Source of the DNA: an uncultured Verrucomicrobiae bacterium
GTDB taxonomy: Bacteria > Chlamydiota > Chlamydiia > Chlamydiales > Rhabdochlamydiaceae
Direction: 5' to 3'
Length of the DNA: 64,000 nt
Assembly: GCA_963818965.1 (NCBI GenBank)
Contig: CAWFUG010000001.1
Coordinates: forward strand, 160,001-224,000
Shown here: positions 27,977 to 28,030 of the stretch, piece after piece
Layout: each line of letters opens with the position of its first letter
Position numbering within the stretch: the first letter of the stretch is position 1
Position numbers and translations under genes: made by a program
The notes under the pieces: generated by a model
The model's database searches: none
What the model saw: the letters and a program-made list of their open reading frames with translations, nothing else
What the model was told of the DNA's origin: nothing

Positions 27977-28030
27977 GCTCGACTCTAGTTTCAGTTGTAC
28001 CGTTTTTCGGTACAACTGAATAAACTCCTT
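27977..28030 (-). other. Orphan fragment of a BRO-N gene carrying a variant palindromic segment
   Basis: Minus strand reads QLYRKTVQLKLESS versus QLLDKIEQLKLESS in the BRO gene at 32563-32605. Confidence 0.7.

Follow-up and report, generated by a model that had tools for sequence, protein, structure and literature searches.

A Bro-N gene with a probable self-recognised coding palindrome, and the likely relic of another allele, in an uncultured Rhabdochlamydiaceae bacterium

We studied a 64,000-nt stretch (the window) of contig CAWFUG010000001.1 (positions 160,001 to 224,000 of the forward strand; assembly GCA_963818965.1) from an uncultured bacterium of the Rhabdochlamydiaceae, with a genome of 2.24 Mb and with environmental Chlamydiae as the closest named homologs. 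It contains an intact Bro-N (BRO) gene that has a 29-nt palindrome within its codons and, 4.6 kb away, an intergenic palindrome (the orphan) with the same outer arms and a different core. The question raised by this locus is why a gene should encode such a palindrome and why a variant of it should stand alone. An earlier note, made from the sequence alone, had proposed a swappable specificity cassette for a DNA-binding protein, a self-operator co-evolving with the helix it encodes, or a relic of a second BRO gene kept by selection. Both 29-mers were found where it had placed them (32577-32605 and 27991-28019), in the reading frames that it had given, and their common pattern TCAGTTG-N15-YAACTGA was non-random: there were five strand-matches with at most two mismatches, versus a mean of 0.65 in 100 shuffles, none of which reached five. 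The explanation that we consider the best overall, and fairly likely, is that the coding palindrome is probably read by the protein that it helps to encode, and that the orphan is a relic whose site was spared by deletion.

The coding palindrome and its coupling to a predicted recognition helix

Alignment of 80 homologous genes from GTDB showed the palindrome at the same codons in 80/80, which agrees with the earlier note's statement that this segment is variable and palindromic across BRO-N homologs. The DNA-level covariation for which the note had proposed a test was present as well, in the form of compensatory and synonymous changes: the inner pairs 7 to 10 were Watson-Crick in 78, 80, 79 and 80 of the 80 genes, across three to four pair types, and pair 4 flipped synonymously (38 G-C, 38 A-T). 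Pairing was above that of synonymous-codon shuffles in each of the 79 genes readable for this test (9.35 versus 6.02 of 11 pairs), and the best other 29-mer per gene averaged 7.5 pairs. The copy in the window gene had 12 of 13 Watson-Crick pairs plus one G.T, and a 3-nt loop.

Mutual information over 200 sequences (effective number, Neff, 59) showed that residues 70-74 co-vary with residues 48, 51, 54, 55, 58 and 59 (z 8-13.5) and barely with the nearer, more variable linker at 60-63 (z 0.8-3.6); residue 66 scored too, in part via register shifts. Among the 151 sequences in the same register as the window gene, the pairings P54-L70, T54-F70 and S/A54-V74 each held in 151/151 and N55-T/M73 in 148/151, i.e., mismatches between helix and palindrome in intact genes numbered 0/151 for residue 54 and 3/151 for residue 55. 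This coupling is not simple descent, since the combinations of helix and site are scattered over the tree of the C-terminal domain: the 42 helix-site types needed 125 changes on it (minimum 41, shuffled 152), and identical C-termini bore different types. Judging from this tree, the whole module of helix plus palindrome is reshuffled among genes.

The window protein matched Pfam PF02498 (Bro-N) with 40.3 bits (curated cut-off 25.6) and the PDC-S13 profile over residues 12-276 (E 1.6e-122). The structural model used was alignment-based, with a predicted local distance difference test (pLDDT) of 88.5 (a single-sequence fold gave 44.9), and it places a helix at 49-63. DdrC of Deinococcus radiodurans was a full-length structural match (Foldseek E 2.5e-7; VIA Z 11.6, root-mean-square deviation [rmsd] 10.7 over 207), and the N-domain of the model resembled the DdrC N-terminal domain (Z 8.6, rmsd 3.4 over 90), Dachshund (Z 6.0) and Mbp1 (Z 4.0). 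According to the model the Bro-N domain is a KilA-N-like DNA-binding domain, and the protein is predicted to have a DdrC-like two-domain fold and to form a homodimer. The homodimer prediction scored 0.68 versus 0.00 for the best control, with pLDDT of at least 81 and contact agreement of at least 68%; in the calibration, 20 of 30 solved homodimers passed the same mark, as did 1 of 23 monomers, and the result for the Bro-N protein was possibly helped by likeness to the solved DdrC dimer. The predicted interface as listed excludes residues 48-58 and 70-74.

Self-recognition is the simplest reading of a predicted dimer, a two-fold site and a helix coupled to that site. By the covariation (151/151), a short DNA element in the gene's own locus is apparently cognate to the protein variant encoded there, and the coding palindrome is probably a self-operator. 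The earlier idea of a self-operator co-evolving with its encoded helix thus stands for the coding copy, with one amendment: the co-varying residues lie in the upstream helix 48-59 and not only in the segment that the palindrome encodes. In one genome (L176), the rare allele carried by the gene recurs as a 28/29 copy 47 nt ahead of the start codon.

The orphan palindrome and relics across genomes

The earlier note had seen the similarity around the orphan end about 15 nt to either side. This is so in comparison with the window's own gene but not with a DNA profile of the family (nhmmer), to which 72 nt aligned (27978-28049, profile positions 138-209 of about 791, E 6e-11). Identity reached up to 21/30 upstream, 28/29 in the palindrome and up to 11/13 downstream, with background beyond. 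The alignment is in frame from the linker through the palindrome to KLESS, with no helix codons, start or C-terminal part, and the orphan peptide recurs in homolog P0107. A frame-shifted reading that would carry the homology over the helix was rejected, identity being 2-7 of 20 beyond 30 nt. The orphan core is of the S54/N55 class and the resident helix of the P54/Q55 class; the orphan is very probably the relic of a gene from another specificity class. With a helix of a different class, the resident protein very probably does not use the orphan as its operator. The swappable cassette proposed in the earlier note finds no support in the orphan, on two counts: the helix codons are absent, and mismatched combinations of helix and palindrome are essentially missing from intact genes.

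The orphan stem begins 26 nt past the stop codon of a DUF2000 gene. As the next gene (TfoX_N) runs towards DUF2000, the gap that holds the orphan is convergent and is no promoter region. Neither the orphan nor a BRO gene was present at any of four orthologous DUF2000 loci (0/4).

The search for orphan sites in genomes that the earlier note had recommended showed that such relics are common. With a whole gene as query against 101 family genomes (E 1e-3, five candidates scored per genome), 21 of 26 fragments shorter than 100 nt covered the palindrome, versus 9-17% expected with simulated detection bias. This excess, and the fact that homology at the orphan extends over 72 nt only, speak against a plain decayed pseudogene around 27977, one of the outcomes that the earlier note had named as refuting it. 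Its proposal that selection retained a relic of a second BRO gene is supported for the orphan as to relic origin (the 72-nt profile alignment and the palindrome enrichment); relic arms do accumulate changes, and lasting selection after gene loss is at most a possibility.

The 30 pattern matches comprised 19 whole genes and 11 truncated genes or scraps. Overall there was a graded series, from genes cut just past the Bro-N domain to bare sites of 30-40 nt. Bare sites often stood right after the stop codons of unrelated accessory genes, arrays of two to four different alleles were frequent, and relics were present in other families of the same order as well. Relic ends varied (profile positions 118-170 and 196-221); a site-specific recombination scar, attC- or att-like, was rejected because no fixed junctions were found and the ends range widely. 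In 11 genomes with the gene, about 5 of 17 relics were cognate (a hand tally from incomplete lists), with no clear enrichment. In a metagenome scan, a real site was present in 3 of 118 loci among the matches listed, two of them identical in sequence.

Three further relics were found in the host genome (C1:68175, C2:144816 and C1:10613). The distance of 4.6 kb, to which the earlier note had drawn attention, is not special: the spacing between a relic and an intact gene ranged from less than 100 nt to more than 8 kb, and some relics were on a different contig or in a genome for which no intact gene was found. The host genome also has a second intact Bro-N gene (C1:15041-15889), 49% identical, which likewise contains a palindrome. 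The relic at C1:10613-10641 is a 26/29 copy lying 4,616 nt upstream of this gene, flanked by the 3' end of a gene and by a degenerate repeat of this 3' end. A fixed 4.6-kb geometry was nevertheless rejected: relative to the gene, the orphan of this second pair is on the other side from that in the window, and the remaining distances differ. Likewise, an exact 38-nt spacing of tandem orphans (four pairs) was discarded, with other pairs at 32, 34, 39, 40, 41, 52, 54 nt and more. At L116:2880-4615, copies of a gene's 3' end flank a BRO gene together with its neighbour. Each copy leads straight into a palindrome, and the stop codon overlaps the first arm. The orphan at L315:2881-2909 has left and right arms from two allele classes, a mixture that suggests a crossover in the loop.

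Among viral matches, those of one class were all gene-free (5/5), and another class included 4 scraps or truncated copies in 16. Two Bro-N-class palindromes stand directly before terS-terL in a complete 38.9-kb phage and likewise in a relative (L334:35-130 and L331:1001-1081), and no family-profile or Pfam Bro-N match was found in either of them. The DNA between the paired sites differs between the two phages; the pair persists.

Retention of bare sites and rival explanations

We propose that the predicted Bro-N/DdrC-like homodimer would read the palindrome at 32577-32605 with its helix 49-63, the gene and its target travelling as one unit. The orphan at 27990-28020 would be the central part of a 72-base remnant left by an earlier gene, one in which helix and site were paired differently; deletion would have spared the site because it still acted on its cognate protein or was occupied by it. 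The site would keep a costly defence protein in check by autorepression and/or by self-immunity of the kind described for the aba element of BstA (see below). As for why bare sites persist, we tentatively favour a need for the site to neutralise the cognate protein over a scar left at a protein roadblock, which seems rather unlikely; the points counted for retained function are the packed arrays and the viral sites. Retention as an exapted RNA hairpin appears improbable.

Several points weigh against this explanation. Independent pairs on well-supported branches agreed with the four pairings in turn (5/5, 2/2, 5/5 and about 6/6), but these tests are small (p 0.03-0.5) and most of the tree is weakly supported, and protein packing between the helix and codons 70-74 could add to the covariation. 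On the coding strand, G.T exceeded A.C by 17 to 4 in 53 distinct palindromes, an excess that an RNA hairpin would also give. The genomes searched are kin and incomplete, and some relic loci are common to kin. Relic arms carried 0.061 changes per site versus 0.013 in genes, their flanks faring modestly worse, in a set chosen by palindrome that includes 5 misclassified genes in 47. An orphan behind a major facilitator superfamily (MFS) gene, considered as one kept for long, turned out to mark an insertion hot spot: only 3 of the 30 loci carry an orphan immediately behind the stop codon, and their alleles differ. The phage case is one lineage, and its sites could serve an unrelated regulator. The 145 PDCs, moreover, are presented in excerpts of Payne et al. 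(bioRxiv 10.1101/2024.01.29.577857) as candidate phage defence systems only, and PDC-S13 is not named in its main text. Finally, DdrC is described in excerpts of PMC11347143 as binding nicks, breaks and ends without sequence specificity; the covariation suggests sequence-specific reading by the Bro-N protein instead of nick or end sensing.

The rival that survives best, doubtful as it is, keeps self-binding and makes the relics functionless: a bound dimer would block forks or shield DNA from resection, so that deletions end beside the site and neutral decay follows. Deletion hot spots are found at Tus-Ter sites. The ragged ends of the relics, about 5-60 nt away from the site, the decay of the arms (~6%) and the relics being mostly non-cognate to the resident gene would all fit, as would the shielding of DNA from exonuclease by DdrC and the blocking of forks by repressor-operator complexes, as given in excerpts of PMC11347143 and PMC1636447, respectively. 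Yet in packed arrays, earlier sites belonging to other alleles have outlasted later deletions (nine pairs, 32-41 nt apart), and the two phages keep their pair of sites with different DNA in between.

It is quite improbable that the palindrome is a hairpin of RNA or single-strand DNA (an mRNA 3' barrier, terminator- or REP-like) that is kept in genes for this function and was exapted behind neighbouring genes after gene loss, with the helix covariation due to packing or linkage. The fold is strong (-20 to -24 kcal/mol, z about -6 to -7), many orphans lie just past stop codons, the coding-strand G.T excess points the same way and the genome is rich in intergenic palindromes. However, neither copy was called a terminator on either strand by stem and T run, at least three orphans lie in divergent gaps, the four DUF2000 relatives do without an orphan, and a hairpin does not account for the core following residue 54 in 151/151 sequences when the linker between them varies freely.

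That orphans are silent donor cassettes converting the gene's variable segment is very improbable: the specificity module does move among genes, some longer relics include the helix (L111, L123) and the mixed arms of L315 suggest recombination between sites, but conversion by the window orphan, which has no helix codons, would create a mismatch unseen in intact genes, many relic-bearing genomes showed no intact gene, and no recombinase was found among the scanned open reading frames (ORFs) near the orphan. Reads from 4 of 7 runs were sparse, and none of the pieces listed spanned either palindrome. We give equally little credence to the orphan as a remote operator through which the resident protein acts on neighbouring genes, since its core is of the S54/N55 class and the resident helix P54/Q55, its place is a convergent gap that follows a truncated gene, and cognate relics are not enriched overall, in spite of cognate copies in some genomes (L176, L116) and the second gene's 26/29 copy 4.6 kb away.

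Beyond the self-read palindrome and its relic, a bolder extension, which we regard as unlikely, is that the coding palindrome serves as DNA antidote against a dimer that is toxic or acts against phages, that chromosomes keep and stack the sites of lost alleles, that phages carry decoys, and that the same holds for DinD-type genes. If true, the arrays would be gene-free immunity and phage decoys would drive the fast reshuffling of helix-site pairs. In the host genome, palindromes of a type that we take to be DinD occur at C1:99425, C2:144889, C3:26972 and C11:72277, with four different cores; one is in a long reading frame and three are outside, with none in a reversed control, and the C2 copy is within about 60 nt of a Bro-N relic. 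Two genes that are presumably RhuM-like (C9:352392 and C9:490965) have coding palindromes at the same motif, with different cores.

Related systems and other features of the window

The system most similar in logic is BstA/aba, in which aba acts as DNA, also in trans at high copy (excerpts of Owen et al. 2021, PMC8585504). Both have a KilA-N-like DNA-binding protein, a short element overlapping its own gene, and variants with cognate elements. As described there, aba differs in being 63 bp long with terminal direct repeats at the gene start, whereas the Bro-N element is a 29-bp palindrome in the codons just after the recognition helix; the proteins are of different families, defence and suppression are only putative for Bro-N, and no gene-free relic arrays were seen for aba in those excerpts. 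The Bro-N system follows the logic of BstA-aba without belonging to it: what accompanies its helix is an inverted repeat at codons 68-76, within the stretch that encodes the DNA-binding domain, and not a pair of direct repeats at the gene start. It would offer another and simpler model of the way in which DNA elements of the aba type shut down their proteins.

With DdrC (PDB 7QVB, 7UDI, 8U1J) the modelled Bro-N protein shares a full-length structural match, two domains and a predicted homodimer, in spite of only 12-17% identity. The DdrC gene is called Deinococcus-specific in one abstract (PMC9303277), and the Bro-N/PDC-S13 family is its full-length structural homolog. The present results would give a handle on the PDC-S13 defence candidate and tie this supposedly Deinococcus-specific fold to a large mobile family.

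Our searches, with subscription literature mostly outside them, returned no paper on a coding self-palindrome in the Bro-N family or on relic arrays. In lambda O, iterons lie inside the initiator gene, and in autorepressor/operator pairs protein and target are co-inherited and their specificity co-varies. The Bro-N case differs from these in having no replicon and only one palindrome, which itself codes for a portion of the binding domain. Hairpins of the repetitive extragenic palindromic (REP) and bacterial interspersed mosaic element (BIME) type and integron attC sites are also short palindromes after stop codons, sometimes in arrays; in contrast, the Bro-N relics go back to a series of coding alleles, and their flanks are ragged remains of the gene with no fixed ends.

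Bro-N is very widespread (at least 8,000 close clusters; 9,722 representatives), and no described targets of its proteins were found in the literature searches. If each gene spells its own target, a helix-to-DNA recognition code could be read directly from genomes, and relic arrays would record the alleles met by a lineage.

The positions of the features discussed are given in Table 1.

Table 1. Features of the Bro-N and orphan loci, in window coordinates
Feature	Position	Strand	Remarks
Intact Bro-N gene, 295 aa	31918..32805	-	Pfam Bro-N, PADLOC PDC-S13; predicted to form a homodimer with a DdrC-like two-domain fold
Coding palindrome, codons 68-76 plus flanking bases	32577..32605	-	Putative self-recognition site, P54-helix class
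Predicted recognition helix, codons 48-59	32629..32664	-	Residues 48, 51, 54, 55, 58 and 59 co-vary with the palindrome
Probable Bro-N gene relic, 72 nt, 'WSNLK-helix' specificity class	27978..28049	-	Family DNA profile, translation, segment identity
Orphan palindrome	27990..28020	.	Stem of 13 bp without mismatch, loop of 5 nt; 28/29 match to the allele of intact gene L095
tRNA-Leu(taa)	33052..33134	-	
DUF2000 gene, 5'-truncated, 88 aa	27698..27964	+	Profile positions 55-132 of 133; relatives' frames 147-162 aa
TfoX_N gene	28373..28747	-	Convergent with DUF2000

A 185-nt repeat containing the 3' part of tRNA-Leu flanks the BRO gene (32921-33105 and 31141-31325, 99% identical), and a third, decayed copy is at 28764-28820; the BRO gene is a small integrated islet between the repeat copies. 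Hairpins of 24 bp occur in nested short repeats beside the tRNA-Leu copies (31031-31325 and 32896-33105), and several dispersed long palindrome families were seen elsewhere in the genome. At 36898-37200 the window has a Lys/Ala/Arg-rich ORF with 18-nt repeats, presumably histone-like.
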